Shown: piece after piece, positions 23,358 through 64,000 of the stretch
How the letters are laid out: every line of letters starts with the position of its first letter
How positions within the stretch are numbered: the first letter of the stretch is position 1
Program-made: the position numbers and the translations under genes
Source: Candidatus Omnitrophota bacterium
GTDB taxonomy: Bacteria > Omnitrophota > Gorgyraeia > Gygaellales > UBA12090
DNA length: 64,000 bases
Assembly (NCBI GenBank): GCA_030674475.1
Contig: JAUSCZ010000041.1
Span: 3,481-67,480, forward strand
Direction: 5' to 3'
The notes under the pieces: generated by a model
The model's input: the letters and a program-made list of their open reading frames with translations, nothing else
What the model was told of the DNA's origin: nothing
The model's database searches: none

Positions 23358-25625
23358 TTAATTCGGCGAATACCTCTCTTTGCCCTGCTCCACAAACAGC
23401 CCGGTATCCGCGATCAACAGCACTGCCCGGAAGTCCGGGGTAGTTTCTACTCCTCGCTCTTCCTTCAGCCAGCAAAGCCGCAGGAGAAGCGGTAATAATT
23501 GGATCTCTCTTTGCGCGTTAAAGGCGTCCTTCTGGGACATCGCCGCCAGTAAACGCTTAAGCCGGTCGGTTGAAACCTCTATCTTGGCATTAATCATCTG
23601 TTCCATTGCGGCCATTTCCCGGCTTATATCAATCCCCTCCAATTCCGCCTTACTCAACAGCGGCAGGCGCAGGTCCAACCCCTGGAAGCTTCCCATCGGC
23701 CGGGTGAGGTAGTTGATTCGGGTGAAGTCAATACCGCCGGTAGTTAACGGTGAATTACTATTTTGAGATAAGTCTTGAGTTAATGCCGAAGAGACCTCAT
23801 CCGATTTCAAAAGACCTAATTTATTGGCGGCGGCTTTTGATAAATTCTTGAATCCATCAACCAACGGTTTCAGCGCACTTTTAAGTTCTGGATCTGTAAT
23901 CTTCCCCACATCTTTAACTAAATTGCTTATCGCGCTATTTAAAACATCTAAATCTTTATCTTTCTCTATTCTAAGATCGGCATAATGGAAGTAACCATTA
24001 AATATCTCTCTCCATTTCGGATGATCCTTATAGCTACGAGATAATAAAGTAAGCTGATCCTTAATCGTTTTCTTGGTCTCCTCTACCGTCAGCGGCGAAG
24101 AGCCGGTCTCTTTCTCCTTCTCCAAATATTCTTGAGCTTCATTAAAAACATTAATTAGTTTTTTATCATTCGCATAGGTTCTACTCAGGGATTCAATTGT
24201 GTTGTTTAAGGCCTCAACAACCTTTTTTCTTTGCTCCCTATTCAAATCAGAGAAAGCACGCTTCAAATTTATCTTCCAACCTATATACGCGAACTCTACT
24301 CCTTCCCCATTACCTTCTCTCGCTATTTTTTCCAAATCAATAAGAAAACCATGATTAGCTGATGCTATTGCGTTCAATCTTTCTTGGCTTTCTATGATCC
24401 CAGTTGGCTCAGATAAATGGTTATGTATTGAACCGCCCACAAAAGCACCGCTCACGATAAGTATCGCAAGTCCGACAAGCGTAGACTTTTTCATCTTTGT
24501 TAATAGTGGACTTCCTGCCTTAAAACCGCCTTCAATTAAAGGCTTAGAGTTCCCGGTCATATCTGTTCCCCCGCTGACATAGCTCCTGATTACCTGGCCG
24601 GTGGGAGTGGTTATCTGTTCCTTAAGGTTGTATTCACCCTGCTGGAAGGACTTTTTGTATTCGCTAAAGTAGTAGTCCTTGGTCCAGGCCTCTTTTGAAA
24701 TAAGATTATCTAAGTTATGGCTGTCAATCAGGCTGGAGTATTGGCCGGGCTGGCCTCTGAACTTGTCCTTAAACCAGCGGGAAAGGATGAGCGAGAAAAA
24801 GACCTGGCGGAGTTGGGCGTATTTCTTGGAGGTATTGACCTCCTGGGTGAGCTTGGGCAGGATGAGTTCTCTAATTAGCTGGGTAGAGTATTGGTTGAGT
24901 TTCTTCATCCTTTGGTCATTAAAATTATACTGGTGACCTGGTGACATGGTGTCCTGGCGACTTTTAATGTAATCTTCCTCCAGCATCACTTTCAGGTTCG
25001 CCTTGTAGATATAGGATGAGTCTTCGCTTTCTCTGATTATTACCTCTCCCGGCACTATCCAGGGCCGAGTGATGGTGGGGATAGTAATGTTTTCAGTGCC
25101 GAATAATTCCCCAGCCCTCTTATACAGCTTATCCCAGTATTCTTTGCCTTCAGGAGTTTGGGGCGAGGTCCAACCGGCAGTATCTTTCTTTAGCTGTAAG
25201 TCCGCCTCCAGCATTATCTTACCCATATCGGTCTTTTCTAACTCCGGGTCTATAATCTGCTCCGGGGCATCCGGCCTAAGATTTACCCAAAACTTGTCGT
25301 TGGGTAAGGATAGACCTATCAAGAAATAATTGAATAGCTTCTTGGTCTCATTCTTAAGAGCATTCTCCGATTTCTCCGGTGACCTGGTGACCTGGTGACC
25401 TGGTGACTTCTCGAAGTCACCCTGGTCTAATAACAGCTTAAAGTCATTGCTTTTGATATCGTAAGAGATATACCGTAGGTGAGGGGGACGAAAGCTATCC
25501 GTATTCAAGGCCGACATTTGGTTCAGGTATTTGCCGATATTCAGCTCGGCTACTCCCTGAGCAAAGATGGGTTGGGTTAAAATCAGGCTATGGGATAGAA
25601 TTAAGGATATGGCTTTTTTGAACAT
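23358..25625 (-). CDS. Large hypothetical secreted/membrane protein (755 aa)
   Basis: Signal peptide and an internal TM (LVGLAILIVSGAFVGG). No recognisable catalytic motifs. It carries two in-frame copies of the octamer-repeat element. Confidence 0.5.
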   Translation of the reverse strand: MFKKAISLILSHSLILTQPIFAQGVAELNIGKYLNQMSALNTDSFRPPHLRYISYDIKSNDFKLLLDQGDFEKSPGHQVTRSPEKSENALKNETKKLFNYFLIGLSLPNDKFWVNLRPDAPEQIIDPELEKTDMGKIMLEADLQLKKDTAGWTSPQTPEGKEYWDKLYKRAGELFGTENITIPTITRPWIVPGEVIIRESEDSSYIYKANLKVMLEEDYIKSRQDTMSPGHQYNFNDQRMKKLNQYSTQLIRELILPKLTQEVNTSKKYAQLRQVFFSLILSRWFKDKFRGQPGQYSSLIDSHNLDNLISKEAWTKDYYFSEYKKSFQQGEYNLKEQITTPTGQVIRSYVSGGTDMTGNSKPLIEGGFKAGSPLLTKMKKSTLVGLAILIVSGAFVGGSIHNHLSEPTGIIESQERLNAIASANHGFLIDLEKIAREGNGEGVEFAYIGWKINLKRAFSDLNREQRKKVVEALNNTIESLSRTYANDKKLINVFNEAQEYLEKEKETGSSPLTVEETKKTIKDQLTLLSRSYKDHPKWREIFNGYFHYADLRIEKDKDLDVLNSAISNLVKDVGKITDPELKSALKPLVDGFKNLSKAAANKLGLLKSDEVSSALTQDLSQNSNSPLTTGGIDFTRINYLTRPMGSFQGLDLRLPLLSKAELEGIDISREMAAMEQMINAKIEVSTDRLKRLLAAMSQKDAFNAQREIQLLPLLLRLCWLKEERGVETTPDFRAVLLIADTGLFVEQGKERYSPN
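24930..24961. repeat. Degenerate copy of the ggtgacct-octamer element inside the 755-aa CDS (encodes ...SPGHQYNF...)
   Basis: ctggtgacctggtgacatggtgtcctggcgac flanked by attaaaa/ttttaat. Confidence 0.6.
25370..25409. repeat. 40-bp octamer-repeat element inside the 755-aa CDS (encodes SPGHQVTRSP)
   Basis: atttctccggtgacctggtgacctggtgacctggtgactt, followed by the hairpin ggtgacttctcgaagtcacc. Near-identical to 63157..63197 in leuS. Confidence 0.85.
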
Positions 25626-25722
25626 TTTTGTCCTTACTTAAATTTCCCAAATAAAAAACCGGACTTGGTCTTTCCTCGCATAAGGAAAAACCAAATCCGG
25701 CTGGGATATTCCGTGGCGTTTT

Positions 25723-25744
25723 GCCTGCCTGCCGGCAGGCAGGC
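25723..25744. repeat. Perfect 22-bp palindrome gcctgcctgccggcaggcaggc (family P3)
   Basis: Intergenic between the 755-aa gene start and the ZIP gene stop. No U-tract follows, so it is not a classic terminator. Confidence 0.6.
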
Positions 25745-27118: not shown

Positions 27119-27778
27119 CTATAAGATTTTCATTAAAGAGGCCGGGCTTTTTATTATTTTAAAAGGCCCGGCTTTCTTTATTTCTGCTAATGAGCTTGAA
27201 CCGCCGCCTACGGCTATTGCAATAACCCCGGCGTTACGCGCGGTTTCCACATCAATAGTCATATCTCCCACATACATAACTTGTTCGGGCTTAATCTTCA
27301 GCTTCTTCATAATCCTTAATAAAATCTCCGGATGAGGCTTTCCTTCAGGTAATTTATCCGCGCAAAGCACATAATCAAAGTATTTTCTCAAATCAAGGCA
27401 CCTCAAAATAATATGGGTAAACTCCGTGGGCCGATTAGAGGCGATAGCGGTTTTAAAATCACGCTGCTTTAAATATTCCAACAGCTCTTTAGCGCCGGAA
27501 AGCAACTTAGTATATTTTGTAAGCGCTATTCGATGGTGACCACGATAAATAACCAAAGCCGGATTCAAATCCTTCTCTTCAATAAAGGCGCCCAGTAATT
27601 TTCTATCCCCCCAACCTACCGCCAAGCGAATTCGCTTAGCCGGAGCTTCTTCATAGCCTAATTTCTTAAGGGTAAAATTCACGCTTTGGGTGATGGCCTC
27701 GTAGGCGTCTACCAATGTCCCATCCAGATCGAAAATTACCAGTTTAATTCTTTCCTGAATATTTTTAAGGTTTTTCAT
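27119..27778 (-). CDS. HAD-superfamily hydrolase (phosphoglycolate phosphatase-like)
   Basis: VIFDLDGTLVD motif I and the C-terminal YVGDMTIDVETARNAG motif IV. Confidence 0.8.
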   Translation of the reverse strand: MKNLKNIQERIKLVIFDLDGTLVDAYEAITQSVNFTLKKLGYEEAPAKRIRLAVGWGDRKLLGAFIEEKDLNPALVIYRGHHRIALTKYTKLLSGAKELLEYLKQRDFKTAIASNRPTEFTHIILRCLDLRKYFDYVLCADKLPEGKPHPEILLRIMKKLKIKPEQVMYVGDMTIDVETARNAGVIAIAVGGGSSSLAEIKKAGPFKIIKSPASLMKIL

Positions 27779-35524: not shown

Positions 35525-35547
35525 TTGAGGTTGAGGTTGAGGTTGAG
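35525..35547. repeat. Tandem hexamer (ttgagg)x3.5 in the M23 peptidase-lnt intergenic region
   Basis: ttgaggttgaggttgaggttgag. Related gaggtt/aacctc hexamer palindrome at 52633..52700. Confidence 0.6.
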
Positions 35548-35565: not shown

Positions 35566-37131
35566 TTAACCTTTTTTTATTTTGCTCATTATACCATAAA
35601 AACACATAAGCGCAAAACATCCCAAGACAAAAACATCACCGATACTTTGATAAAGACTTTTTGATTTTGGGCTCAGAATAATGTCCTGAGTTTTTATGCC
35701 GGAGACAAAAATGTCTTTACCATTTTGAATAAGCCTGGAGATAACCCTGCCGCGGGAATCAATAAAACAGGATATTCCGGTGTTGGCCGAGCGCGCTAAA
35801 GGAAGCCTGTTTTCTACAGCCCGAAATACCGAAGCCGATAAATGCTGATAGGGAGCGGTAGTCTCTTTGAACCAGGCGTCGTTAGTGATATTCACCAAAA
35901 AGTCCGCTCCTTCTCTGGCGAAATTACGCGAGAGCTCAGGCAGGGTATCTTCAAAACAGATAAGCGCTCCAAATTTAGCGGATAGCGGATAGCGGATAGC
36001 GGATAGCAAAAATAAAGTATAATTATTACCAGCAGTAAAGTCTCCGATCGGAACGATACTCTCCAGAAATTTGAATGCGCCTTTTAAGGGAATATATTCT
36101 CCGAAAGGCACTAAATGCAGTTTATCATAACGGCCGGATATCCCAAATTCATTTATCAGCAGGGCGCTGTTAAAATATTTCCTTTTTTCTTTGACTACTG
36201 AGCCAACCAGCAGGGGAATTTTTATCTCCTTGGCCAGGTTAAAGATATTTTCGTTTACCCGCGCGTCAGACTCATCACCCAAGAAGCCGGGATTGGACGC
36301 CTCCGGCCAAATTATTAAATCCGGCTTAGCCAAAGCCGCTTCTTTAGTCAAACGGATGTATCTATCTAAAATAAAGGCCTGTGAACCAGAAGCCCATTTT
36401 AACTCCTGGGGAATATTGCCCTGGATTAAAGAAATTTTAAACAGCTTTCGGCTTTCGGCTGGCCAGAAGGCCGTGGTTGGGCCTCCGATGGCCCAAGCCA
36501 CTTTCGGCTTTCGGCTTAATTGATAATAGCCATAAACTAAAATTATAGAAAAACTTAACACGAAGACTGAGCATTTTCTTATTTTGCTTGAGGCTGAAAG
36601 CTTGAGGCTGAAAGCTGAGTATATTACTATATTCGCCATTACCACCAAAAAAGAAACACCGTAGGCGCCGAAAAGATCGGCAATCTGAATAATCGGAAGA
36701 TTTAAATATTGGGAATAGCCTAAAAGCGCCCAGCCGAATCCGGTCAAAAGATGAGCCCGCAGATATTCCAGGACAACCCAGAGGGAAGGAAGAAACAAAT
36801 AGTTGATAGTTGATAGTTGATAGTTGATAGTTGAGAAACATAAACCAAAAAATCCAAAATATAAAGATAAATATAAAATCAGGAGGATTTGGCCAAGCAG
36901 GGTAACGTGGACTAACCAATAGATGGTCAATGTCCAGAAAATTAGTCCGGTTAGATAAGATAATAAAAAGGCTTGAAGTTTAGATTTCTTCTGGAAGGAG
37001 AAAAATAAAGGCAGGAAGGCAAACCAGGCAAAAAACCAAAGCCGGCCCTCGAAAAACGGCAGGCTTAATAATACTCCGGAAATGATACTAAGAATTAAGG
37101 AACCGCGTTTACTAAGAAGGCCATAAACCAT
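35566..37131 (-). CDS. lnt: Apolipoprotein N-acyltransferase
   Basis: 521 aa with an N-terminal polytopic domain and a C-terminal CN-hydrolase domain (ICFED, Cys). It contains several in-frame tandem heptamer repeats. Confidence 0.8.
   Translation of the reverse strand: MVYGLLSKRGSLILSIISGVLLSLPFFEGRLWFFAWFAFLPLFFSFQKKSKLQAFLLSYLTGLIFWTLTIYWLVHVTLLGQILLILYLSLYFGFFGLCFSTINYQLSTINYLFLPSLWVVLEYLRAHLLTGFGWALLGYSQYLNLPIIQIADLFGAYGVSFLVVMANIVIYSAFSLKLSASSKIRKCSVFVLSFSIILVYGYYQLSRKPKVAWAIGGPTTAFWPAESRKLFKISLIQGNIPQELKWASGSQAFILDRYIRLTKEAALAKPDLIIWPEASNPGFLGDESDARVNENIFNLAKEIKIPLLVGSVVKEKRKYFNSALLINEFGISGRYDKLHLVPFGEYIPLKGAFKFLESIVPIGDFTAGNNYTLFLLSAIRYPLSAKFGALICFEDTLPELSRNFAREGADFLVNITNDAWFKETTAPYQHLSASVFRAVENRLPLARSANTGISCFIDSRGRVISRLIQNGKDIFVSGIKTQDIILSPKSKSLYQSIGDVFVLGCFALMCFYGIMSKIKKG
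35979..36006. repeat. Tandem heptamer (cggatag)x4 inside lnt CDS (encodes LSAIRYPLSA)
   Basis: gcggatagcggatagcggatagcggatagc. In-frame within the lnt reading frame. Confidence 0.85.
36445..36514. repeat. Paired ctttcggctttcgg direct repeats flanking a 42-bp hairpin-containing segment inside lnt CDS
   Basis: ctttcggctttcgg ... ttgggcctccgatggcccaa ... ctttcggctttcgg. Encodes SRKPKVAWAIGGPTTAFWPAESRKL in-frame. Confidence 0.7.
36585..36618. repeat. Tandem 14-15-mer (cttgaggctgaaag)x2 inside lnt CDS
   Basis: gcttgaggctgaaagcttgaggctgaaagctgag. Encodes FSLKLSASS in-frame. Confidence 0.7.
36801..36835. repeat. Tandem heptamer (agttgat)x4.5 inside lnt CDS (encodes STINYQLSTINY)
   Basis: agttgatagttgatagttgatagttgatagttgag. 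Confidence 0.85.
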
Positions 37132-37150
37132 AAACTATAAACTATAAACT
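37123..37150. repeat. Tandem heptamer (ataaacy)x4 spanning the secA-lnt junction and the lnt ATG
   Basis: ataaaccataaactataaactataaact. The lnt ATG (37129-37131) lies within the second repeat unit. A related ctataaactatcaactataaac lies at 40071-40093, between prfB and secA. Confidence 0.75.
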
Positions 37151-37154
37151 TTTT

Positions 37155-40028
37155 CTATTTTCCACAACACTTCTTATATTTTTTTTCGCTTCCGCAAGGA
37201 CAAGGCTCATTGCGGCCCACATCAGGCTGAGGTATCAACGATGCTGGAGGCGCCGCGGGGACCCGGGAAACAGCTTCAGCCGGACGCTCAGCGCGCGAAG
37301 CAGTGTTTTCCTGAGGCCGGAATCTTTCCGCTTCGGGGTGAATAAATTCCTGATTAATTGAAGAAAATACGCCTTTTATCTCTTTTACTTCCTGGCGGAC
37401 CTGGAGCTTAAAAATGATATCCACCACATCGGCCTTAATGGAATTAACCATTTGGCTAAACATCTCATAAGCGCCACGTTGATATTCTACCAAAGGATCG
37501 CGCTGGCCATAAGCCCTCAAGCCTATTCCCTCGCGAAGATAATCCATCGCGTAAAGATGGTCCTTCCATTTGCTGTCAATAACCTGTAAACAGACCATTC
37601 GCTCTAAATGACGCAGGACATCACCTCCGGCCGACTCTTCCTTAGAAGAATAAATATCCAAAACTTTCTTTAAAATATCTTCAACTATCTCTTCATGGGC
37701 GCGCTCAAAGAAGCTTGCCTCAGGCTGTAAGGAAAAATTAATCTTCAGCCAACCGGAGAAACCCTCAACATCCCAGGCCTGAACCGGGGCATCTTGGGAA
37801 ATATACTGTACAGCCGCGGATTCAATAATTTCCCGGGCCATCTCCAGGATGTGTTCTTTTAAATTATCCGACTCCAAAACTACCCGGCGTTGGTGATAAA
37901 TGACCTCCCTCTGCTTATTCATCACATTATCGTATTCCAAAAGTTGCTTTCTTATCTCAAAGTTATGCTGCTCCACCCTCTTCTGAGCAATCTCAATGGA
38001 TCGGCTTACCCAGGGATGCTCAATAACCTGGCCCTCCTCCAGGCCCAGGCGGGTCATCATCCCCACCAACCGGTCTGAGCCGAACAAGCGCATCAAATCA
38101 TCCCCTAAGGAGACATAAAAACGCGATGAACCGGGGTCTCCCTGCCTGCCACAGCGGCCGCGTAGCTGATTATCAATACGCCTGGCCTCGTGGCGCTCGG
38201 TGCCGAGGACATGCAGGCCCCCTAATTCCACTACCTTATTATGTTCATCCTCTGTTTCTTTTTTATACCTGACCATAAGGTTTTGGTATTCGCTGAGATA
38301 ATTATCGTCTTGAGGATTAATGTCCTTTTGTTTTAATATGCTCTTAACAATAAAATCGGCATTGCCTCCCAGTAGTATATCGGTTCCCCGTCCGGCCATA
38401 TTGGTAGCAATGGTTACTGCCTTATATCTGCCGGCCTGAGAAACAATAGCCGCCTCCATCTCGTGGTATTTGGCATTAAGCACCTGATGCGGGACGCCCT
38501 TTCGCTTAAGCATATCTGAGAGAAGCTCAGACTTACGGATAGAAACCGTTCCCACCAGCACCGGACGGCCCTGCTTAGAACATTCGGCTATTTCTTCAAC
38601 CGCCGCGTCAAACTTTTCCTTCTCGGATTTATACACCCGGTCAGGGGAATTCTGACGAACCAGCGGACGGTTAGTCGGAATAGAAACGACATCTAAGGAA
38701 TAAATATCCTTAAATTCCGCTGCCTCAGTAAGCGCGGTTCCGGTCATACCGGATAATTTCTCATACATCCGAAAATAGTTCTGAAAGGTAACGGTGGCCA
38801 AGGTCTGATTTTCCCGTTCAATCTTTAAACCCTCATGGGCCTCCACCGCCTGATGCAGGCCGTCGGACCAGCGCCTTCCCGGCATAAGCCGGCCGGTAAA
38901 CTCATCCACGATAATTACCTGGCCGTCTTTGATCACGTAATCCACATCCCGTTTATAAAGGTTGTGCGCGCGTAAGGCCTGGGTCAGGTGATGGCGGTAT
39001 TCCATGGTCTCTATCTCATGAAGATTATCTATCCCCAACAGATTACAGGCATTAATCTCGCCCTCATCGGTTAAGGAAGCGGTGTGGGATTTCTCGTCAA
39101 TCATATAATCGTAGCCCTTGGTCAAATCCACCCCTTTATACTTGGCGTCAATCTCATCCTTTTCCAGGATGATTCTTCCCTTAAGCTTAGAGACAATTTT
39201 ATTTATGCTGTAATATTTTTCGGTGGATTCCTCGGCCGGGCCGGAAATAATCAAGGGGGTGCGGGCCTCATCAATCAGGATGGAATCCACTTCATCAACT
39301 ATGGAATAATAAAACGGCCTTTGGACCATTTCATCTTTGGAGACTACCATATTGTCGCGCAGATAATCAAAACCGAATTCATTGTTGGTGCCATAGGTGA
39401 TGTCGCGGGCGTAAGCCTGTCTTCTGGCGGCCGGCGGCATATCGTGCTGGATAACCCCGATACTCAAACCTAAAAATTCATAAATCGGCCCCATCCACTC
39501 TCTATCGCGCCGGGCTAAATAGTCATTAACCGTAATTATATGCACGCCTTCGCCCAAAAGCGCGTTCAGACAGGCCGGCAGGGTTGCCGCCAGGGTCTTT
39601 CCTTCGCCGGTAGACATCTCGGCAATCTTACCTTCGTGCAAGACTATCCCGCCGATAAGCTGAACATCAAAATGGCGCATATTCACCGCGCGTTTTGCCG
39701 CTTCCCGGACACAGGCAAAGGCCTCAGGCAAAATTTCCTCAAAAATACTATTGCGTAAACCCTTAAGCCTGAATTTAAGTTTGGCCTTTTCGGTATTGGA
39801 GGTAGCTTCCCGGATCTGCTCTTGTAGGCTTAGAAAATCTTCTTTCAGGGCTTTGGATTTCTCTAAGAGGATATTTCTAAATTCACCCGTCTTGGCCCGG
39901 ATTTGAGCGTCGGAAAGCTGTTGAATCTTAGGCTCCAAAGAATTAATCTTCTCCACTATGGGCCGGAGGCGCTTAAGCTCCCGGTCATTCTGAGAACCGA
40001 TTAGTTTTCTAGTAATAAATTTAATCAT
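37155..40028 (-). CDS. secA: Preprotein translocase ATPase SecA
   Basis: 957 aa. N-terminal [18 protein letters not shown]-like motor motifs, and the C-terminal [14 protein letters not shown] zinc-binding tail. Confidence 0.95.
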
Positions 40029-40095
40029 CTTATGCGTTAAAGCAGAGGCGGTTTCTGATTTACAGGTTTGCTATAAACTATCAACTATAAACGGA

Positions 40096-41197
40096 TTACT
40101 TTTTCACTTTCTGCATTTTTAAATAAGCTTCAATAAACTTATCCAACTCTCCGTCCATTACCGCGTTGACATTGCCGGTTTCATACTCCGTGCGGTGATC
40201 CTTGACCATGCTGTAAGGATGCATTACATAGGAACGGATCTGGCTTCCCCACTCAATCTTTTGCTTCTTGGCGTATTCGGACTGAATCTTTTCTTCCTGC
40301 TTACGGCGCTCCTCTTCATAAAGCTTGGCCTTTAAGATATTCATGGCCGTCTGTTTATTCTGATACTGCGAGCGCTCATTCTGGCACTGCGCCACAATGC
40401 CGCTGGGCAGATGGGTTATCCGGACCGCTGAATCCGTGGTATTAACCGATTGCCCTCCGGGACCGCTGGAACGATAGACATCAATCCTTAAATCCCTCTC
40501 CTCGATTTTAATGTCAATCTCGCCTTCAATCTGGGGAACAACATCCACCGAGGCAAAAGAAGTATGCCGACGCTTATTGGAATCAAAGGGAGAAATCCGC
40601 ACCAGCCGGTGCACACCTGCCTCAGCCTTTAAGTAGCCGTAGGCATAAGGGCCTTCAATCAACAAAGTTACATTTTTTATCCCGGCCTCTTCCCCGTGCA
40701 GAATATCCGCGACCTTGGTCTTATAGCCTTTGGATTCGGCAAAACGGCAATACATCCTGAACAGCATATCCGCCCAATCGCAAGACTCCGTTCCTCCGGC
40801 CCCGGCATTTATGGAAAGAATAGCGCTGTTGGCGTCAAACTCCTGACTCAGAAGAAGCTTAAACTCTAAAGAATCTATGTCTTTTACTACAAGATCTAAA
40901 TTCTTATTTAATTCCAGGATTAACTGGGAATCTCCGGCAGTGGATATTTCCCCAAGCTCTTTTATGTCTTTGAGTTTAGCCTCGGCATCCTTAAAAGGCT
41001 GGATTCGGGTTCTTAGATTTTTTAACTCCCCAATTACCTTAAGCGATTCTTGGGATTCCTGCCAGAAATCCTGGGCGGACATCCGGACATTAAGTTCGTT
41101 TATCCGGCTTTCAGTATGAGCCAGGTCAAAGATAACCTCTAAGCTCATCGAGCTTTTTTTCTAAAGCGGCTATCCTGGTTTTAATCTCATCAAGCAT
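40096..41197 (-). CDS. prfB: Peptide chain release factor 2, with programmed +1 ribosomal frameshift at CTT-TGA-C (in-frame UGA at 41126-41128)
   Basis: ORF0 ATG at 41195-41197 encodes MLDEIKTRIAALEKKLDELRGYL. It is then followed by UGA within AGAGGTTATCTTTGAC, where an SD-like GAGG lies 3 nt upstream of the CUU slip site. The +1 frame continues DLAHTESRINELN... with a GGQ-containing body to 40096. The MSLEV start in the ORF track is an artefact. Confidence 0.9.
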
Positions 41198-43983: not shown

Positions 43984-44102
43984 CTCAATAATTATTGATT
44001 TTATTATTCGATCCCGAATTTATTTTCTTCAAAGGTATTCCTAATATGTTTTCCCATGCCTGGAAAGTAACCATCAAATTTCAAGACTTAACTCTTTTCT
44101 CC
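43984..44102. repeat. Island modular repeat, copy A (right two-thirds of the ~170-bp unit)
   Basis: aattattgattttattattcgatcccgaatttattttcttcaaa...gcctggaaagtaaccatcaaatttcaagacttaac. Shared with 48340..48472. The ORF-track entry 43995..44321 lies on it and is spurious. Confidence 0.8.
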
Positions 44103-44221
44103 CTATTATTATATATTTCGTTTTTTGTGTCTAACGATAAAGTTAAGCCGCCATTTTCCGCAGAGCAAAACGACGCGGGAAATGGCGGCTTCAACGCTTT
44201 GTTAGATGGTAATTTATTGTT

Positions 44222-44422
44222 TTATTCGATATCTATCTCTTTTTTTACGTCATTGAACGAAGTGGTAGGAATATCGGCTTCTTTTGATTTAGCGTCCCGC
44301 AGTGCTTTTAGAGCTTCGTAATCTTCAAGCTCTTCCTGAATTTGGACGAATTCCTCATAAGGCAATACGACGAATTCTTTTTTTCCATCTTTTTCTAAGA
44401 TTTTTGTATGTAACGATACCAT
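44222..44422 (-). CDS. Phd/YefM-type antitoxin
   Basis: 66 aa. KEFVVLPYEEFVQIQEELEDYEALKALRDAKS resembles YefM/Phd. Located 12 nt downstream of the RelE/ParE toxin gene. Confidence 0.6.
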   Translation of the reverse strand: MVSLHTKILEKDGKKEFVVLPYEEFVQIQEELEDYEALKALRDAKSKEADIPTTSFNDVKKEIDIE

Positions 44423-44433
44423 TTTCTTCCTCC

Positions 44434-44682
44434 TTATCGATATGCTTCTTTTCTATGCATAATACGGTAGATAATTATTTTATCCTTTTCTGTTTCAAAA
44501 AGAACCCTATAGTCACCTGCTCGCAGGCGATATTCGGGAGAATAATTAGTTAATTTTTTGACATCGCCTTGTAAATCATCGGATAAAACCTCAACTTTTG
44601 AAAATATCAATTGTAATGTTTTCTTATCGATCGATTTGCAGTCTTTTATAGCTTTGGGTTTAAACTCAACTTTATACTTCAT
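44434..44682 (-). CDS. RelE/ParE-family type II toxin
   Basis: 82 aa. YRLRAGDYRVLFETEKDKIIIYRIMHRKEAY is the characteristic C-terminal RelE/ParE motif. Confidence 0.7.
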   Translation of the reverse strand: MKYKVEFKPKAIKDCKSIDKKTLQLIFSKVEVLSDDLQGDVKKLTNYSPEYRLRAGDYRVLFETEKDKIIIYRIMHRKEAYR

Positions 44683-44866
44683 AAGATAATTATACCATAT
44701 TTTGGTGTAATTTCAGTATTTTCATCTAACGAAAAGCTCAGCGTTGCCAACCCCGGGCATTCGCTGGAGCGTCTTGTTAGGAATTTTTACTTTCTTCTAT
44801 TTCTTTTTCTAATCTCAGTTTTATGTCTCTCCTCTAAACCCGCGCCCGTGCTTACTGCCTCAAATA

Positions 44867-45274
44867 TTAGGGTTCGATGGGTACAATTCGCAGCATATCC
44901 TTCGTAAGCTCAGTCACTCTATATGACTCCGTTATATCACCTTTAATTATCTGAAGGATACTTTTGCGCGGATCAAATCTCCACTTTCCAGACTTGAAAT
45001 GGTGAGCATCGTCGGGAGACAAATAATACCATTCACAATCACCATTTTTGTAGAAGATATATTGCATTCTGAATCGGCTTCCCGGAAATTCTTTGAAATC
45101 TTTCGGGCGGTATATTGAGTCTTTATCAGCTTGCTGTTGTTCCTCGAACGAATGGACCCAGTGCTGATATAAGTACTCTGGCGTCTTGGGTTTTGGAGAG
45201 GCGGATGGTGGGCTGTCTTCTGCCAATAAATATGATCCGCCAATGAGCATCACGATAAGTAGCAATATTTTCAT
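44867..45274 (-). CDS. Hypothetical secreted protein
   Basis: 135 aa with a signal peptide (MKILLLIVMLIGGSYLLA). No family recognised. Confidence 0.4.
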   Translation of the reverse strand: MKILLLIVMLIGGSYLLAEDSPPSASPKPKTPEYLYQHWVHSFEEQQQADKDSIYRPKDFKEFPGSRFRMQYIFYKNGDCEWYYLSPDDAHHFKSGKWRFDPRKSILQIIKGDITESYRVTELTKDMLRIVPIEP

Positions 45275-45282
45275 ATTTTGAT

Positions 45283-45440
45283 TTCAGCCTAACGAAATGG
45301 CTAACCCGCCGGGGCATCCACCATCGCAAAAAACTTTAGGGGTCAAACCCGGACATTAGACATTATCTCATCTTTTCCTTAAAAATTACACAATAGTTAT
45401 TGATTTTATTATTCAATTCCGAATTTCTTTTCTTCAAAGC
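45283..45440. repeat. Island modular repeat, copy B (left two-thirds of the unit)
   Basis: ...ctttaggggtcaaacccggacattagacattatctcatcttttccttaaaaattacacaatagttattgattttattattcaattccgaatttcttttcttcaaa. The upstream part (tttcagcctaacgaaatggctaacccgccggggcat) recurs at 44713..44790. Confidence 0.8.
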
Positions 45441-45573
45441 TAAAAACTCTCGCGCTTTATCACTACACCATTGCCTTAACCCACCCGAATAATCATTAAT
45501 TGTCTTCTATTCATCATCCCGCGTATTGTTTTTCAGACCAACCATACATTGCTCAAATGTTTTGATTATGAAT

Positions 45574-46380
45574 TCAGGAGGGCGTAAGGCCTAAATTTTT
45601 TAGTTTACTTATTTCATTCTGATTATATACCCCACTTTTTTCAAGAAGAAATCCTATTGCCTGATGATAAGGATAAACAAAAGCTAACTTCTTTAAAGTT
45701 CTTATTAGATTTTCAATAGAAATCCCTTCTTTTGCTAGTTTATAACAATTTAATATTTCTAATATACCATTCGTATATGATGGCCGAACAACAATATCAA
45801 TTAATGTTCTTTCTAAATTTGTTACTAATACCTTATTTTGATTGAAATATGCTTCTATAACACCGCACATATTAGTATTTTGGCCATTCAATAAATAAAC
45901 CTTATATTCCTTAAAATTAGCTATGTTGGTTGTGACTCGCTGTGTTCTTGAAAATGCAAAATCAATTCTCCCTTGGGATAAGGAAGAGGAATAATTGGAC
46001 GCGGAACTTCTTCTTTGCTCAAAATTTACATAAATTTTGTCTGGTGGGTCATTAATTAACTTGTGAATATATAGCGCTGTTCGGTGTGTATAATATAGAT
46101 TTTTTATAAATGAGAGACAGTATACCCATACGGAAACATCTCCCCAGCTAAAAAGAGAATATTCACGGTTAGGGAATTTAATTGAGGTCTTCTTTAAGTC
46201 TGTACGTTTTAGTAATAATTCTAAAAACTTGAAAGCTGTCATGGTGTTAGGTAGGTCCCATTCCAATCTTTTATCTTCTAGAATGTTCACTATTTCGGTA
46301 AAGGTAAAGATTGATTTCTTGGCTTGTTTGAAATAGTTTTTAATTACATCAAGTTTTGTCTCAAATTTTGAAATTTTCAT
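45574..46380 (-). CDS. Uncharacterised 268-aa protein (possible Abi-like/HEPN-like defense component)
   Basis: No transmembrane or signal features. It contains an R-x5-H segment (HRTALYIH) compatible with, but not proving, a HEPN Rx4-6H motif. It stands alone between island repeat B and the hipB promoter region. Confidence 0.3.
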   Translation of the reverse strand: MKISKFETKLDVIKNYFKQAKKSIFTFTEIVNILEDKRLEWDLPNTMTAFKFLELLLKRTDLKKTSIKFPNREYSLFSWGDVSVWVYCLSFIKNLYYTHRTALYIHKLINDPPDKIYVNFEQRRSSASNYSSSLSQGRIDFAFSRTQRVTTNIANFKEYKVYLLNGQNTNMCGVIEAYFNQNKVLVTNLERTLIDIVVRPSYTNGILEILNCYKLAKEGISIENLIRTLKKLAFVYPYHQAIGFLLEKSGVYNQNEISKLKNLGLTPS

Positions 46381-46638
46381 TTTTTAGATAAGTTTTAAGT
46401 TAAAATTGAGCTTAACTCCTACCGGTATAGTATAAATACTATATCGGTAGAAAGTCAAGTATTTTCTCATTTTCTTCAGTTTAATTATACCCTTTAAGGT
46501 GTAATTATCAAATTTTTTAAATAAAACATTGGCTATTATGCCCTTTAAGGACTATTTGTTTATAATAAAACCCTATCAGGTATAAAAATTTAAAAAATAC
46601 TTGCAATTATACCCGAAAGGTGGTATATTCTTATCACC

Positions 46639-46890
46639 ATGGCCCACTTTCCAATTAATATACAGATTAAGAATCTACGAAAAAAGCTGGGTTTAACTCA
46701 AGTCGATTTCGCGAAAAGAGCAGGGGTAGGTTTGCGTTTCTTAAGAGAGCTGGAAGAAGGCAAGCCTACGGTGCGGTTAGATAAGCTTAATCAAGTTTTG
46801 GATTTCTTGGGTGTTCATCTGGAAATAGCGCGCAATGAAAATATAAAATCTGAATGGACAGATAACAACAAACTTGAAGCAGAATTATGA
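46639..46890 (+). CDS. hipB: HipB-like XRE-family HTH antitoxin/regulator
   Basis: 83 aa with an HTH (LRKKLGLTQVDFAKRAGVGLRFLRELEEGK). The stop overlaps the start of the next gene (ATGA). Confidence 0.7.
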   Translation: MAHFPINIQIKNLRKKLGLTQVDFAKRAGVGLRFLRELEEGKPTVRLDKLNQVLDFLGVHLEIARNENIKSEWTDNNKLEAEL

Positions 46891-47210
46891 AAGAACTTAG
46901 AAAAGGGCAGGTTTTTTTCAATAAGGACTTGGCCGGGGACATTAGCGAAACGAAAGACGGCTATCTTTTTGAATATGATAAAGATTTTTTAAAAAAAAAT
47001 ATACCTGTTTCTATGTCGTTACCTCCCAGAGAAGAGCCTTATGAATCTAAAGAATTATTTCCTTTTTTTAAAGGCCTTTTGCCTGAAGGCTGGTATTTAG
47101 ATATTGTTACCGCTACCCAAAAGGTTGATAGGGAAGACTTGTTTGGTATCCTTCTTTGCACTACGAGCGGTGATACCATTGGCGCGGTAACGGTTCGCAA
47201 GATAGAATGA
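46887..47210 (+). CDS. HipS-like protein (HipA N-terminal subdomain homolog)
   Basis: 107 aa. The YLFEYDKDF...PVSMSLPP... pattern matches the HipA N-terminal (Couple_hipA) region, here as a separate ORF in a HipB-HipS-HipT gene order. Confidence 0.6.
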   Translation: MKELRKGQVFFNKDLAGDISETKDGYLFEYDKDFLKKNIPVSMSLPPREEPYESKELFPFFKGLLPEGWYLDIVTATQKVDREDLFGILLCTTSGDTIGAVTVRKIE

Positions 47211-47242
47211 ACATCATTGCTGTCCAGGTTAGCCATTACAGC

Positions 47243-47345
47243 GTCATTCCCGCAATCTTTTAGCGGGAATCCACGACGAGAGTATTTTCTGGATACCCGC
47301 TTTTCCCGCATAGCGGGATCCCGTAAAGCGGGACGCGGGTATGAC
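47243..47345. mobile_element. MITE-like element (family P2, copy Y) inserted between hipS-like and hipT-like genes
   Basis: gtcattcccgcaatcttttagcgggaatcca...ggatacccgc[ttttcccgcatagcgggatcccgtaaagcgggac]gcgggtatgac. Same termini as 22304..22379, with a nested extra hairpin module. Confidence 0.65.
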
Positions 47346-47407
47346 AAATTCAATATCTCAAAATTCCGTTCCAGTCGACAAGTAATAACTAATTTGGACA
47401 CGAGTGA

Positions 47408-48274
47408 ATGAACATAAAACTTATTAAAGAGATGTTTAATACTTCTAAACTGCCGATAATAGATTTCGGCTTGGAAGATGTTTCTCAAAAAGCGCAGAAA
47501 TCGGCGGGGAAGTTATCCATTTCCGGGGTTCAGCCGAAATTATCCATGAAGCTTGATAAGAAAAATAATGCGTTAATTTCTGTTGCTGAAGGCGGAGAAT
47601 ATATTTTAAAACCCCAAACCGTGGCTTTCCCGAATATTCCTGAGAATGAACAGTGTTGTATGGACATAGCGGCGGAGTTTAAGATAGCTGTTCCTCCTCA
47701 TTGTCTCTTGCCTTTAAAAGATAAAAGCTGGGCGTATATTGTGAAAAGATTTGACAGGGAATCAGGCGTGAAAATCCATCAGGAAGAATTCTTTCAAATA
47801 TTAGAATCAGGAAATAAATACCAAGGTTCCGTTGAACAAATTGGGCGTAAATTAAAAGAAATATCTACCGCGCCCGGATATGACGTGCAATTATTTTTTG
47901 AGAGGGTTGTCTTTAATTTTATTATTGGAAACGGAGACGCCCATTTAAAGAACTATTCAATCGCGTATAAGGATAAAGAAACTATCCGCTTAACGCCGGC
48001 CTATGATATGGTATGTTCAAAATTGGTGATTCCGGATGAAGAAGATTCCGCCTTATCTATCAACGCCAAAAAGAATGAACTGAAAAGAGATGATTTTGAT
48101 AAGTTGGCGGAGTATTTAAATATACCGATAAGAATTCGCTATGAAAAATTCGAAAAGAGCTTGATTTTAATGGAAACAATAATTAAAAATTCAAAAATTA
48201 AGCAAGAGATTCAGGAGCGATTTATTAACATCATTAAAGAGCGCTTATCACGTATGAACATAGCGGCAGAATAA
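47408..48274 (+). CDS. HipT/HipA-like serine/threonine kinase toxin (kinase core)
   Basis: 288 aa with the ISGVQPKLSM P-loop-like motif and the catalytic GNGDAHLKN (D-x-H-x-K-N) motif of HipA-family kinases. Confidence 0.7.
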   Translation: MNIKLIKEMFNTSKLPIIDFGLEDVSQKAQKSAGKLSISGVQPKLSMKLDKKNNALISVAEGGEYILKPQTVAFPNIPENEQCCMDIAAEFKIAVPPHCLLPLKDKSWAYIVKRFDRESGVKIHQEEFFQILESGNKYQGSVEQIGRKLKEISTAPGYDVQLFFERVVFNFIIGNGDAHLKNYSIAYKDKETIRLTPAYDMVCSKLVIPDEEDSALSINAKKNELKRDDFDKLAEYLNIPIRIRYEKFEKSLILMETIIKNSKIKQEIQERFINIIKERLSRMNIAAE

Positions 48275-48283
48275 AGAAAAGTT

Positions 48284-48472
48284 TAAAAAGCTTTAAGGGC
48301 CACCCGGACATTAGATACCATCTAATCTTTTCCTTAAAAATTAGAGACAATACTTAATTATTGATTTTATTATTCGATCCCAAATTTTTTCTTCAAAAAT
48401 ATCCCTTATTTGCTTTCCCCTGCCTGGAAAGTAACCATCAAGTTTCAAGACTTAACCTTTTTCTTTTCTCCG
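48284..48472. repeat. Island modular repeat, copy C (full-length ~170-190-bp unit)
   Basis: ctttaagggccacccggacattagataccatctaatcttttccttaaaaattagagacaatacttaattattgattttattattcgatcccaaatttttt...gcctggaaagtaaccatcaagtttcaagacttaacc. The ORF-track entry 48361..48591 is spurious. Confidence 0.8.
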
Positions 48473-53689: not shown

Positions 53690-54233
53690 CTAAGCGCTCC
53701 AGCACCCGCCGGGCCAAATCGGCTATGGCCAGGTCAAGAGCGGCCTTCTCGGTCTTAGCCTGGGTGCCGGTGATAAAATAAGTCGCGTCTCCCACAAAAT
53801 TAGGTTCCTCCCAGAGAGGGGTTTCCTCCCCCTTTTTTAAGAGGACCAGGCGCATTATCAGGCTAACGCGGTATTCGGCAACATCCTCCTGGTTATTCTC
53901 ATAACGCAGGGCATCCCGCTGGTAGTTAATCAAATCGCCCTTGAGAACTATATCCGCGTCTTCTTTCTTGGCCACGCGCATTCCTCCATCAAACATGAAA
54001 CGGTTGATAACCGCGGCGCGGATGTCATTTTCTAACAGCGGATGATAGGTCCGGAATCTCTGCCCCAGTCCGGTGGCATCCTCGGAAAGCAGATCAACCT
54101 TATTAGCAAATGGCTCAACAAAGATAGTTTTATACGGTCCCCGGTAAATCGTGCGGCTGGTATAGCCGCAGCCGAACAAAGCAGAAAGCAGAAAGCAGAA
54201 AGCAGAAAGCGAAAAAAGATTGCGTTTTTTCAT
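53676..54233 (-). CDS. lptE: LPS-assembly lipoprotein LptE-like
   Basis: 185 aa with lipobox LFGC. Its size and position upstream of holA match the leuS-lptE-holA arrangement of E. coli. Confidence 0.55.
   Translation of the reverse strand: MKKRNLFSLSAFCFLLSALFGCGYTSRTIYRGPYKTIFVEPFANKVDLLSEDATGLGQRFRTYHPLLENDIRAAVINRFMFDGGMRVAKKEDADIVLKGDLINYQRDALRYENNQEDVAEYRVSLIMRLVLLKKGEETPLWEEPNFVGDATYFITGTQAKTEKAALDLAIADLARRVLERLVENW
54181..54208. repeat. Tandem heptamer (gcagaaa)x4 encoding the LptE signal-peptide hydrophobic core (FSLSAFCFLLSA)
   Basis: gcagaaagcagaaagcagaaagcagaaagc. Reads in-frame on the minus strand. Confidence 0.85.
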
Positions 54234-61877: not shown

Positions 61878-64000
61878 TTAAATTACTATGTTTACCAATT
61901 TTCCGGGAACCACGATAATTTTCTTTGCCGGCTTATCCTCAATCCACTTCTTTATTCCCGGCTCGTTCAGACAACGCTGTTTTAATTCCTCTTCCGCGAT
62001 ATCTTTGCTGACCACGATAGTGCCTCGGTGTTTACCGTTTATCTGAATCACGATGGTGATATTTTCTTCCGTCAGCAGGCTTTCATCGGCTCGCGGCCAT
62101 GGGGCTCGCGTTATGCTTTCGCTGTGGCCTAAGCCCTGCCAGAGCTCCTCGCTAAAGTGCGGGGCAATCGGAGAAATTAAGACAACTAACTGGGAAAAAA
62201 CCTCTTTATCCGCTCCTGACTGATATATGGCATTAACCAACTCCATCAGGCCGGCGATAGCGGTGTTGAATTTAAATTCCTCTATATCGGCGGTAACCTT
62301 TTTGATGGCCTTATGCAGAGCGCGGTAAACTTGAAGGTCGGCCTTTTCTTTTAAGTTATCCTGGATGCGCCAGAGGCGGTTGAGAAATTTAAAGGCCCCC
62401 TCTATCCCCCGGTCATCCCACTCCAGCTCAGTCTCCGGGGGAGCGGCAAAAAGGATAAACAACCTTAAGGTATCCGCGCCGTATTTCTGAATTATGGAAT
62501 CCGGGTCAACAATATTGCCCCGGGATTTTGACATTACCTCGCCGTCTTTTAAAACCATACCCTGGGTGAGCAGGGATTTAAAAGGTTCGTGGAAATCTAT
62601 CATTCCCAAATCCTGAAAGAACTTGGTGAAAAAACGCGAATATAACAAATGTAGGATGGCGTGCTCAATCCCGCCGATGTATTGATCAACCGGCATCCAA
62701 TATTTGGCTTCTTTAACGTCAAACGGATTATTCTCATCTTGGGGTGAACAGAATCTCAAGAAATACCAGGAAGAATCAAAGAAGGTGGCCATAGTATCGG
62801 TTTCCCGGCGGGCTTTTTCCTGGCATTTAGGACAAACGGTATCCACAAATTCCTTAACCTTGCCTAAAGGACTACCCCCCTCACCGGTAAAAGGCGCATC
62901 TTCAGGAAGCTCCACCGGTAGGGCCTCGTAGGGCACCGGAACAATCCCGCATTTCGGGCAATAAACAATCGGAATAGGTGTTCCCCAATAACGTTGGCGG
63001 GAGATAAGCCAATCCCGAAGCCGCCAATGGGTTACAATTTTACCCATACCCTCTTTCTCCATCCATTGGGCAATTTTAATCTTAGCCTCTTGGTTCGCCA
63101 GGCCGTCAAACTCCCCGGAATTAACCTGTAGACCATCACCCTCATAGGCTTCCCTCATTTCTTCCGGTGACCTGGTGACCTGGTGACCTGGTGACTTTAT
63201 CACAATTCGCATTGGCAAATTGTGTTCTTTAGTAAACAAGAAATCCCTCTGGTCATGGGCAGGCACAGCCATAATCGCGCCTGTGCCGTATTCCATCAAC
63301 ACATAGTCGGCAATCCAGACCAGAATAACTTCCCGGTTAACCGGATTAATGCAATAGGCCCCGGTCCAAACCCCTTCTTTTTTTACATCTTCTTTAACCC
63401 GGGATATTTTGCTCTCCTGAGATACCCTCTCTATAAAGGTTAAGGCCTCTTTTTCTTGCGGTCTACCCCGGATAATCTCTTTTACTAAGGGGTGTTCCGG
63501 CGCCAAAACCACATAGGTTGCCCCGAAAATAGTATCCGCTCGGGTGGTAAAGACCGTAATTACCTTATCGCTATCTTTCAGGCGAAAATATATTTCCGTC
63601 CCCTGGCTCTTTCCAATCCAGTTGCTCTGCATGGCGATAACCCGCGGGGGCCATTTATCCAACTGCTTCAAATCCTCCAGCAGACGCTCCTTGTATTCGG
63701 TAATCTTCAGATACCACTGTTCCAGCTCTTTCTGCTCCACCGGACTGTGGCACCTCCAGCATTCACCCTCAATAACCTCTTCATTGGCCAGAGTGGTTGA
63801 GCAGGAAGGGCACCAGTTAACCCCGGAGGCCTTTTTATACGCTAAGCCGCGCTCAAACATCTTCAGGAATATCCACTGGTTCCATTTATAATAACTGCTG
63901 TCGCAGGTGGAAAGCTCCCGCTCCCAATCATAGGAAAAACCCATCTTCTTTAATTCCACCTTCATCCACTCAATACACTTATGGGTCCAATCATCCGGCT
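61878..64000 (-). CDS. leuS: Leucyl-tRNA synthetase, C-terminal ~700 aa (N-terminus beyond the window end); carries an in-frame octamer-repeat insertion
   Basis: Editing-domain and anticodon-binding regions with a KMSKS motif (VMSKSRGN). The ORF-track start at 63965 is internal. The inserted segment SPGHQVTRSP is encoded by 63157..63197. Confidence 0.9.
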   Translation of the reverse strand, partial: PDDWTHKCIEWMKVELKKMGFSYDWERELSTCDSSYYKWNQWIFLKMFERGLAYKKASGVNWCPSCSTTLANEEVIEGECWRCHSPVEQKELEQWYLKITEYKERLLEDLKQLDKWPPRVIAMQSNWIGKSQGTEIYFRLKDSDKVITVFTTRADTIFGATYVVLAPEHPLVKEIIRGRPQEKEALTFIERVSQESKISRVKEDVKKEGVWTGAYCINPVNREVILVWIADYVLMEYGTGAIMAVPAHDQRDFLFTKEHNLPMRIVIKSPGHQVTRSPEEMREAYEGDGLQVNSGEFDGLANQEAKIKIAQWMEKEGMGKIVTHWRLRDWLISRQRYWGTPIPIVYCPKCGIVPVPYEALPVELPEDAPFTGEGGSPLGKVKEFVDTVCPKCQEKARRETDTMATFFDSSWYFLRFCSPQDENNPFDVKEAKYWMPVDQYIGGIEHAILHLLYSRFFTKFFQDLGMIDFHEPFKSLLTQGMVLKDGEVMSKSRGNIVDPDSIIQKYGADTLRLFILFAAPPETELEWDDRGIEGAFKFLNRLWRIQDNLKEKADLQVYRALHKAIKKVTADIEEFKFNTAIAGLMELVNAIYQSGADKEVFSQLVVLISPIAPHFSEELWQGLGHSESITRAPWPRADESLLTEENITIVIQINGKHRGTIVVSKDIAEEELKQRCLNEPGIKKWIEDKPAKKIIVVPGKLVNIVI
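63157..63197. repeat. 40-bp octamer-repeat element inside leuS (encodes SPGHQVTRSP), followed by the hairpin cacaattcgcattggcaaattgtg
   Basis: atttcttccggtgacctggtgacctggtgacctggtgactt. Identical core to 25370..25409. Confidence 0.85.

Follow-up and report, generated by a model that had tools for sequence, protein, structure and literature searches.

Heptanucleotide repeat arrays at fixed sites within the lnt gene of Candidatus Omnitrophota

Tandem repeats of the window and the genes that carry them

Among the long simple-sequence repeats (SSRs) of prokaryotes, heptanucleotides are reported to be the commonest class, with polymerase slippage given as their source (Mrazek 2007, cited in PMC4692102 and PMC4679880), and non-triplet repeats are reportedly avoided in the middle of coding sequence (PMC3315296). 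Here we describe heptamer arrays that lie within lnt, the gene for apolipoprotein N-acyltransferase, in a 64,000-nucleotide (nt) stretch of a Candidatus Omnitrophota metagenome-assembled genome (MAG; contig JAUSCZ010000041.1, positions 3,481 to 67,480), referred to throughout as the window. Nearly all genes of the window are on the minus strand. The Lnt protein aligns with Escherichia coli Lnt (5xhq) at 2.5e-38, and NCBI lists a protein of a Candidatus Omnitrophota MAG to which it is 100% identical. The genes that carry or border the arrays are listed below.

35566..37131, minus strand: lnt, 521 amino acids (aa), with Pfam matches to LNT_N (3.1e-36) and CN_hydrolase (6.4e-32); host of five arrays
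37155-40028, minus strand: secA, SecA match
40096-41148, minus strand: prfB, an RF-2-type release factor, PCRF/RF-1 match
53676-54233, minus strand: lptE, LptE match at 4e-9
61878-63965, minus strand: leuS, 3' part only

The five arrays of lnt are designated N and S1 to S4 by their order in the gene, and further arrays lie in neighbouring spacers, in lptE, in leuS and in a secreted open reading frame (ORF). The positions below refer to the window, and TM denotes a transmembrane segment.

37121..37150, minus strand: site N, (AGTTTAT)3(GGTTTAT)2 on the coding strand (ATAAACT/ATAAACC x4), in the spacer between the secA stop and the lnt start
36799..36834, minus strand: site S1, (CTATCAA)5.1 (ATAGTTG x5.1), encoding STINYQLSTINY, in the TM4-TM5 loop
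36586..36616, minus strand: site S2, (AGCTTTC AGCCTCA)2.2, a higher-order 14-mer of two heptamer variants, in the TM6-TM7 loop
36444..36517, minus strand: site S3, an (AAGCCGA) array in the linker between TM7 and the nitrilase domain, in two 2.4-copy halves around a hairpin segment
36444-36460 and 36501-36517, minus strand: the two halves of S3, GCTTTCG x2.4 each, with the hairpin segment between them at 36461-36500
35976..36007, minus strand: site S4, (GCTATCC)4.6 (TAGCGGA x4.6), encoding LSAIRYPLSA, in a loop of the nitrilase domain
35525..35547, minus strand: hexamer (CCTCAA)3.8, in the spacer between lnt and an M23 peptidase gene
40071..40092, minus strand: (GTTTATA GTTGATA GTTTATA) (CTATAAA/CTATCAA x3.1), in the prfB-secA spacer directly 3' of the prfB stop
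54178..54214, minus strand: (GCTTTCT)4.7-5.4 (AAAGCAG x5.4), in the hydrophobic core of the LptE lipoprotein signal peptide, MKKRNLFSLSAFCFLLSALFGC
63166..63195, minus strand: 8-mer (AGGTCACC)3.8, encoding KSPGHQVTRSPE, in an insertion-tolerant loop of LeuS
25378..25407, minus strand: 8-mer (AGGTCACC)3.8, encoding KSPGHQVTRSPE, in a secreted ORF of 755 aa without a Pfam match

The array at site N spans the 23-nt secA-lnt spacer together with lnt codons 1-4, and the ATG of lnt lies within a mutated unit. The S4 loop just precedes the strand that bears the catalytic cysteine (ICFED). The 40-nt hairpin segment of S3 has a predicted DNA folding energy of -19.4 kcal/mol (z -2.8). The leuS and 755-aa ORF arrays, 38 kb apart, have in common an identical stretch of 36 nt, AAG(TCACCAGG)3TCACCGGA, and a two-copy remnant of the 8-mer is found at 24930-24945. 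No part of the window matched an Rfam covariance model at the gathering score.

All arrays named in an earlier note on this DNA are present in the sequence, although the S1 array, given there as 4.5 copies of agttgat, has 5.1. The note also stressed that every array preserves the reading frame, which is true but trivial since the ORFs are intact. The arrays far exceed chance expectation. With a threshold of 2 copies plus 3 nt, the window holds seven perfect period-7 arrays, compared with a mean of 0.09 (maximum 1) in 100 shuffles that preserved its dinucleotides; four of the seven have 3 copies or more, a length reached in no shuffle. As perfect head-to-tail repeats of 5-11 nt units, beyond chance length, the window arrays are of the kind called long SSRs.

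Recurrence of the arrays in lnt genes of Omnitrophota

The lnt DNA of four close relatives (L001, L003, L004 and L005; 67-83% amino-acid identity) was obtained from independent ENA and NCBI assemblies. All four carry heptamer arrays at positions matching those of the window gene, and since the assemblies are independent the arrays are not assembly artefacts. Within the 5-21 kb surrounding lnt in these relatives, heptamer arrays are confined to lnt.

For a wider survey, JGI metagenomes were scanned with conserved Lnt motifs that are not encoded by arrays. This yielded 80 further Omnitrophota lnt loci (48-61% identity) amounting to 811 kb, of which 127 kb is lnt and 684 kb lies outside it. With an array defined as a perfect repeat of at least 2 copies plus 4 nt, there were 119 period-7 arrays inside lnt (0.94 per kb) compared with 11 outside (0.016 per kb), a 58-fold enrichment. 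Period-8 arrays numbered 12 inside and 4 outside, while periods 6 and 9 were represented by 1 inside and 3 outside and by 0 inside and 1 outside, respectively. The majority of arrays outside lnt are found just upstream of it or at the 3' end of prfB; of the 40 loci that include the prfB-secA junction, 6 have an array at the latter position, as does the window. A stop-to-stop ORF mask covered 95% of the flanks and was of no use for dividing them into coding and intergenic sequence.

When 84 Lnt sequences were aligned, their 148 period-7 and period-8 arrays clustered at five discrete sites (residues in window numbering).

Site N, N-terminus and secA junction: 21 arrays
Site S1, residues ~100-113, TM4-TM5 loop: 37 arrays
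Site S2, residues ~170-190, TM6-TM7 loop: 31 arrays
Site S3, residues ~204-230, TM7-nitrilase linker: 28 arrays
Site S4, residues ~375-385, loop before the strand with the catalytic cysteine: 30 arrays

At least one perfect array is present in 63 of the 84 lnt genes, and the window gene has arrays at all five sites. Perfect arrays measure 18-38 nt, or 2.6-5.4 units. Heptamer arrays are thus a trait of particular sites of one gene in most sampled Omnitrophota lnt, and not a genome-wide feature. The earlier note mentioned neither this recurrence in most sampled Omnitrophota (at five lnt positions, the LptE signal peptide and the 3' end of prfB) nor the concerted evolution of units inside each lineage described below.

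The sequence at these sites is free and their length is not. Among the 37 arrays at S1 there are 30 distinct units, and the segments that hold the arrays are nearly invariant in length (interquartile ranges: S1, 54-54 nt; S3, 42-45 nt; S4, 45-51 nt). At S1-S4 the mean self-match at a lag of 7 nt is 0.44-0.52, compared with ~0.25 at other lags and in control segments of the same genes. Loops of similar length exist at the corresponding places of E. coli Lnt, so the arrays occupy native linkers and are not large insertions. The period is 7 nt and not 21 nt, and units are identical whatever codon position they begin in. Orthologous sites that lack an array encode unrelated peptides of equal length; S4 of L003 and L004, for example, lacks a pure array; its segment has the same length, encodes an unrelated peptide and is still faintly periodic at 7 nt. 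The arrays are therefore not a codon coincidence of a conserved peptide. This supports the part of the earlier note's reading in which the repeats exist at the DNA level and are tolerated by the protein, here in loops, linkers and signal peptides. Its further suggestion of dispersed selfish repeats resembling those of cyanobacteria did not hold: nearly all units differ, the known cyanobacterial units are absent, and the arrays keep to a few fixed sites.

The signal peptide of LptE is a comparable site. The (GCTTTCT)4.7 array is common to the window, L126 and L127, and the LptE of these relatives (P0121) is 95% identical to that of the window. The same site holds (TACTTTC)4.6 in L128 and the 8-mer (TTATTGGG)3.9 in L129. 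Over 94 orthologs, identity at a lag of seven in the 22 residues ahead of the lipobox is 0.164, compared with ~0.085 at other lags. In LeuS, the loop segment with the array is absent from L129, and L128 has a different insert of 15 aa with (CAGTCCA)2.4. An 8-mer closely related to the unit of leuS and the 755-aa ORF, ACGTCACC, forms arrays at the lnt N site of L158, L163 and L212.

Many LptE orthologs (among them P0125, P0130, P0134, P0137 and P0144) have long called N-terminal extensions before the real signal peptide, with recurring peptides such as INTDKKHGLTQII and NHRLHRLKK.ITQII. These extensions look like translated upstream repeat elements combined with mis-called starts. Two Lnt homologs, P0066 and P0112 (674 and 637 aa), also bear a Peptidase_M23 domain, which suggests that in some genomes lnt has become fused by read-through to the downstream M23 gene.

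Turnover, frameshifted alleles and nested palindromes

Each lineage has its own unit at a given site, and variants are spread across the copies of an array. At S1 the window and L004 have CTATCAA, L005 has CTATCGA, L003 has CTATTGA and L001 has CCATCGA/CTATCGA. Orthologous sites thus differ in unit and copy number between related genomes, another property of long SSRs. The window and L004 also differ from the other relatives in the reading frame of S1, by way of compensating 2-nt and 1-nt indels at the array edges; the change is invisible inside the array, since a 7-nt repeat read in any of the three frames gives one and the same peptide with a 7-residue period. Units of genes at ~90% identity differ and each is homogenised. 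A sharper case is presented by L162, L166 and L193, in which pure units differ between flanks that are ~99% identical: at S2 they have TCGGTTA, GTCACAA/G and GGTCATA, and at S3 CACCGAA, ACCTGCG and CACCTAT, respectively. It follows that turnover is fast relative to point divergence, or that short cassettes are recombined. The lnt genes of L162, L166, L193 and L184 are mosaics in which blocks 98-99% identical to a relative stand beside blocks of ~90% identity, with the switch in the array-rich S2-S3 region. The window gene is likewise a mosaic relative to L003, L004 and L005, being L004-like at its 5' end and L005-like around S4.

Among closely related genes the arrays are stable in length. Copy number is invariant within clusters of at least 90% identity, and all Lnt clusters as well as 15 of 15 LptE members keep the array-encoded peptide. 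The near-identical pairs L134/L135 and L203/L204 are the same at S1-S4, L153/L155 are 100% identical over the aligned lnt region, and copy number at the arrays is identical in four near-identical locus pairs altogether. Copy number varies in the spacers: the hexamer of the lnt-M23 spacer, where no reading frame is at stake, has 3.8 copies in the window and 2.3 in L004, and the length of the N site varies too.

Of 85 full-length lnt genes, 83 are in frame. In one lineage the S1 repeat unit is 28 nt long and consists of GCTATCC and a 21-nt palindrome. Its allele in L133 has three such units and is in frame; that in L197 has two and is frameshifted, as is the two-unit allele found in NCBI OGX44545.1 (P0278) and in two further contigs (P0281/P0282); and that in L214 has two units and an extra GGCA (-28 nt and +4 nt, net -24 nt), by which the frame is regained. 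A second frameshifted lnt allele, at S2, occurs in L212. The L133, L197 and L214 alleles may record slippage followed by restoration of the frame, and assembly collapse may account for the 28-nt case, which lies near a contig end. Two further split lnt genes were considered as OFF alleles and set aside: that of L211 coincides with a scaffold gap (a run of N), and that of L213 is on an error-prone long contig where secA is likewise broken into three ORFs.

The 21-nt palindrome is rich in G and C, is of the type CTGCC(T)TGCCGGCAGGCAGG and is translated as LPAGRQ. It lies inside S1, S2 or S3 arrays with the local heptamer on its flanks, and was seen within arrays in L133, L150, L181, L197 and L214; the element is in frame within lnt. 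Seven copies are in lnt compared with five in the 684 kb of flanks of the 80 surveyed loci, and one is in a spacer of the window (25722-25744), as (TGCC)3(GGCA)3. The palindrome resembles a miniature mobile or REP-like element. Its translation gives peptides of the form LPAGR(Q), which appear in loops of Lnt and in the N-terminal regions called for LptE orthologs.

By comparison with L004 and L005, the S3 array of the window carries an insert of 42 nt, which is 6x7; the array is unbroken in both relatives, and in L004 it is a perfect x4.6 repeat. We considered the 42-nt hairpin as a mobile element, but no other copy was found in the window (allowing at most 3 mismatches) or in 210 loci (exact matches) except at the orthologous site.

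Some units are common to different sites. GCTATCC was seen at three sites (N, S1 and S4), L162 has one unit at both S2 and N, and in several genes one unit is common to S1 and S4. Identical units at different sites make up 37 pairs compared with 6 expected, a figure inflated by the relatedness of the sequences. Together with the identical arrays of leuS and the 755-aa ORF, these shared units show what appears to be occasional copying between array sites. Conversion between the arrays of one gene was rejected as a general rule, as the mean distance between units is 3.36 within genes and 3.46 between genes and the excess of identical units is small.

Outside the array-bearing genes, a stretch of low GC content (0.34-0.36 compared with ~0.45 elsewhere) at 44000-50000 may be an acquired island. 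It houses the sole long plus-strand gene of the window, a HipA-like toxin kinase (47408-48274), and two copies of the 15-nt unit TCCCGCAAAGCGGGA (47304-47333). A subtilase (Peptidase_S8) of 1542 aa with chitobiase-C, Ig-like and fibronectin-III domains (55374-60002) adjoins the BamD-like, LptE and holA genes. At 27133-27183, two tandem copies of a 25-nt unit (TTAAAGAGGCCCGGCTTTCTTTATT, 85% match) lie at the end of an ORF.

Comparison with known repeat systems and possible explanations

The arrays share with prokaryotic long SSRs (5-11 nt) their tandem 7-nt units, low copy number and variation of unit and length between related genomes. The described long SSRs are mainly intergenic and genome-wide, however, whereas those described here are in the middle of lnt, at fixed positions, and enriched 58-fold over the flanks. 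A scan of genome contigs for CTATCNN x3.7 returned pure arrays in many phyla, and among the matches listed ~30% were within long ORFs and none was at a locus holding an lnt gene.

Cyanobacterial STRR heptanucleotide repeats were reportedly described by Mazel in 1990, and SDR mini-elements embedded in tandem heptamers are said to have been reported by Elhai in 2008. The STRR comprise three defined units (CCCCAGT, TTGGTCA and CAACAGT) in many, mostly intergenic, copies. The resemblance to the Omnitrophota arrays extends to the 7-nt tandem units and to small hairpin or palindromic elements, here of 21-42 nt, nested in the arrays. In contrast to STRR, the arrays here nearly all differ in unit, are coding and are limited to a few sites; STRR units in tandem occurred 0 times in the window and once in 948 kb of Omnitrophota loci. 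Apart from that single STRR case, the known heptamer units (STRR1-3, TAACTGA, GGGAATC, GGGGATT and ATCTTTC) are absent as arrays from the sequences examined here.

The GGGAATC repeats of Xanthomonas and the GGGGAYT repeats of Nostoc are similar to those described here in their preference for about four units, their occurrence at the same gene junctions in related genomes and their variation in length and sequence (PMC4692102). The TAACTGA repeats of Beggiatoaceae, which are direct heptamer repeats of 2-6 copies beside start codons, resemble the arrays of the secA/lnt and prfB/secA junctions; they have a single conserved and intergenic unit, proposed to be a regulator-binding site, whereas no conserved unit exists here (PMC4679880). 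Each of these three families has a conserved unit and is reported as mainly intergenic (PMC4692102, PMC4679880). In the literature we found no report linking heptamer repeats with Omnitrophota or with lnt, and the described families have other, conserved units; site-specific heptamer microsatellites in a housekeeping gene are therefore a new form of a known kind of element.

We hold with moderate confidence that the arrays are slippage microsatellites trapped in linkers that are constrained in length and free in sequence. They would arise by replication slippage with a unit of 7 nt, occasionally 8, in the four Lnt linkers, the Lnt N-terminus, the LptE signal-peptide core, the LeuS surface loop and adjacent spacers. 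As 7 is not a multiple of 3, a change of one or two units would break the downstream frame, and a change of three would lengthen or shorten the linker by 7 residues. In an important gene, purifying selection would then remove almost all changes in length and block the stepwise shrinkage that is open to repeats with triplet units or in intergenic sequence, leaving the array frame-locked at 30-36 nt, or about 4-5 units. New variants would be spread, and the array kept pure, by out-of-register slippage or conversion within the array and sometimes between arrays, so that each lineage would come to have its own pure unit at a fixed position. What the sequences show directly is the arrays, their restriction to particular sites, the fixed segment lengths, the homogenisation of units and the rare frameshifted and compensated alleles; that slippage or conversion is the process, and that a frame lock is why the arrays persist, we infer. 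Such a model accounts for the excess of 7- and 8-nt periods over those of 6 and 9 nt, the constant array length (about 4-5 units), the fixity of position with freedom of sequence, the lack of change among close strains and the rare occurrence of frameshifted and compensated alleles.

Several observations weigh against this model. Other polytopic membrane proteins of the window (MurJ, ComEC and a ZIP transporter) have no arrays, and tolerance and frame lock do not fully explain why about five arrays lie in lnt and nearly none in the flanks of the 80 loci. The arrays at the prfB 3' end and in the secA/lnt spacer recur across the sampled Omnitrophota without a frame lock. The spread of variants in steps of one unit, up or down, would pass through frameshifted states, and length-neutral conversion is assumed. 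Unlike pure units within 99%-identical flanks need very fast turnover or cassette-like recombination. Lastly, frameshifted alleles in several assemblies fit a tolerated OFF state.

The main rival reading is an evolved contingency system, in which second-order selection would maintain tracts whose slippage switches lnt and lptE by frameshifts and by changes in junction spacing (phase variation or tuning), giving populations with and without N-acylated lipoproteins or lipopolysaccharide (LPS) export. In host-adapted bacteria, contingency loci such as the 7-bp repeats found upstream of the Haemophilus influenzae hmw genes are long tracts, hypervariable between clonal isolates, in surface or restriction-modification genes. 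The Omnitrophota arrays are like them in having non-triplet repeats in coding or 5' regions, a conserved presence with shifting sequence and number, and frameshifted alleles. The enrichment recurs over the sampled Omnitrophota in one gene, both within its coding sequence and at its 5' junction, units of 7 and 8 nt in lnt, lptE and the lnt 5' junction are non-triplet and far outnumber 6- and 9-mers, and lnt and lptE both serve outer-membrane biogenesis. Furthermore, lnt is dispensable in several Gram-negative bacteria, and the frameshifted alleles (L197, OGX44545.1, P0281/P0282 and L212) are exactly at array sites, with L214 compensated. The earlier note had thought contingency unlikely for lnt; these frameshifted and compensated alleles speak for it, and the invariant copy number in clusters of at least 90% identity speaks against it. 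Unlike contingency loci, however, the tracts here are short (3-5 units, where well above 5 is typical of high slippage), do not vary in copy number within any examined cluster of 90% identity or more, nor within the four near-identical pairs, and belong to an inner-membrane biogenesis enzyme. The five arrays of a gene exceed the need of a switch, 83 of 85 full-length genes are in frame, the clear frameshift concerns a 28-nt composite unit near a contig end where assembly collapse may have occurred, and two other apparent split genes are artefacts. We regard an evolved contingency system as unlikely. That heptamer tracts in outer-membrane biogenesis genes, at the five sites and 5' junction of lnt and in the lptE signal peptide, are kept across the sampled lineages as a heritable switch or tuner, selected for mutability, with OFF and second-site compensated alleles produced by slippage, seems to us quite doubtful.

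The arrays might instead be seeded and renewed by templated copy-and-paste linked to tiny mobile palindromes, in the manner of the cyanobacterial SDR elements, through 7-bp target duplications, template switching or ectopic conversion and not by local slippage alone, a process that could be compatible with either the frame-lock or the contingency model. The identical 36-nt block of 8-mers in leuS and an unrelated ORF 38 kb away, the sharing of units (L162 S2 and N, S1 and S4, and the excess of identical pairs), the palindromes flanked by the same heptamer inside arrays (L133/L197, L150 and L181), their seven copies in lnt to five in the flanks, and the 42-nt (6x7) hairpin inserted into the S3 array of the window all point in this direction. 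Against these stand the very high diversity of units, the majority of arrays that are free of palindromes, the confinement of the single-copy 42-nt hairpin to its orthologous site and the inflation of the shared-unit excess by related sequences; seeding also leaves site specificity unexplained, and we give it a low probability. Protein-level selection for 7-residue periodic, heptad-like peptides in linkers and signal peptides is extremely improbable. A 7-nt repeat does yield a 7-residue repeat, the hydrophobic cores of LptE have the lag-7 identity described above, and proline is at the same S3 position in many lineages. The repeats, however, are perfect at the nucleotide level, with a period of 7 nt and not 21 and with synonymous variation between 21-nt periods not common, and this nucleotide periodicity largely refutes selection on the protein as their cause. 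The peptides are, moreover, unrelated between lineages and often contain proline or a mixture of charged and polar residues, and arrays of the same kind exist in non-coding spacers.

The interior of an important gene would be expected to lose any non-triplet microsatellites, and here they are part of the conserved anatomy of lnt in most sampled Omnitrophota lineages, which indicates that frame-breaking microsatellites can persist for very long inside a housekeeping gene. The lnt arrays offer a natural system with hundreds of independent replicates in which the birth, homogenisation and loss of repeats and their invasion by mini-palindromes can be measured, and which allows a test of whether a frame lock renders a repeat effectively immortal. 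Annotation of Lnt and LptE is affected as well: peptides with a 7-residue period, and translated palindromes such as LPAGRQ, cause spurious similarity and mis-called starts. The arrays also raise the question of whether lipoprotein N-acylation and LPS export are switchable in Omnitrophota. If so, these ultra-small, host-dependent cells could vary the acylation of their lipoproteins and the export of LPS.

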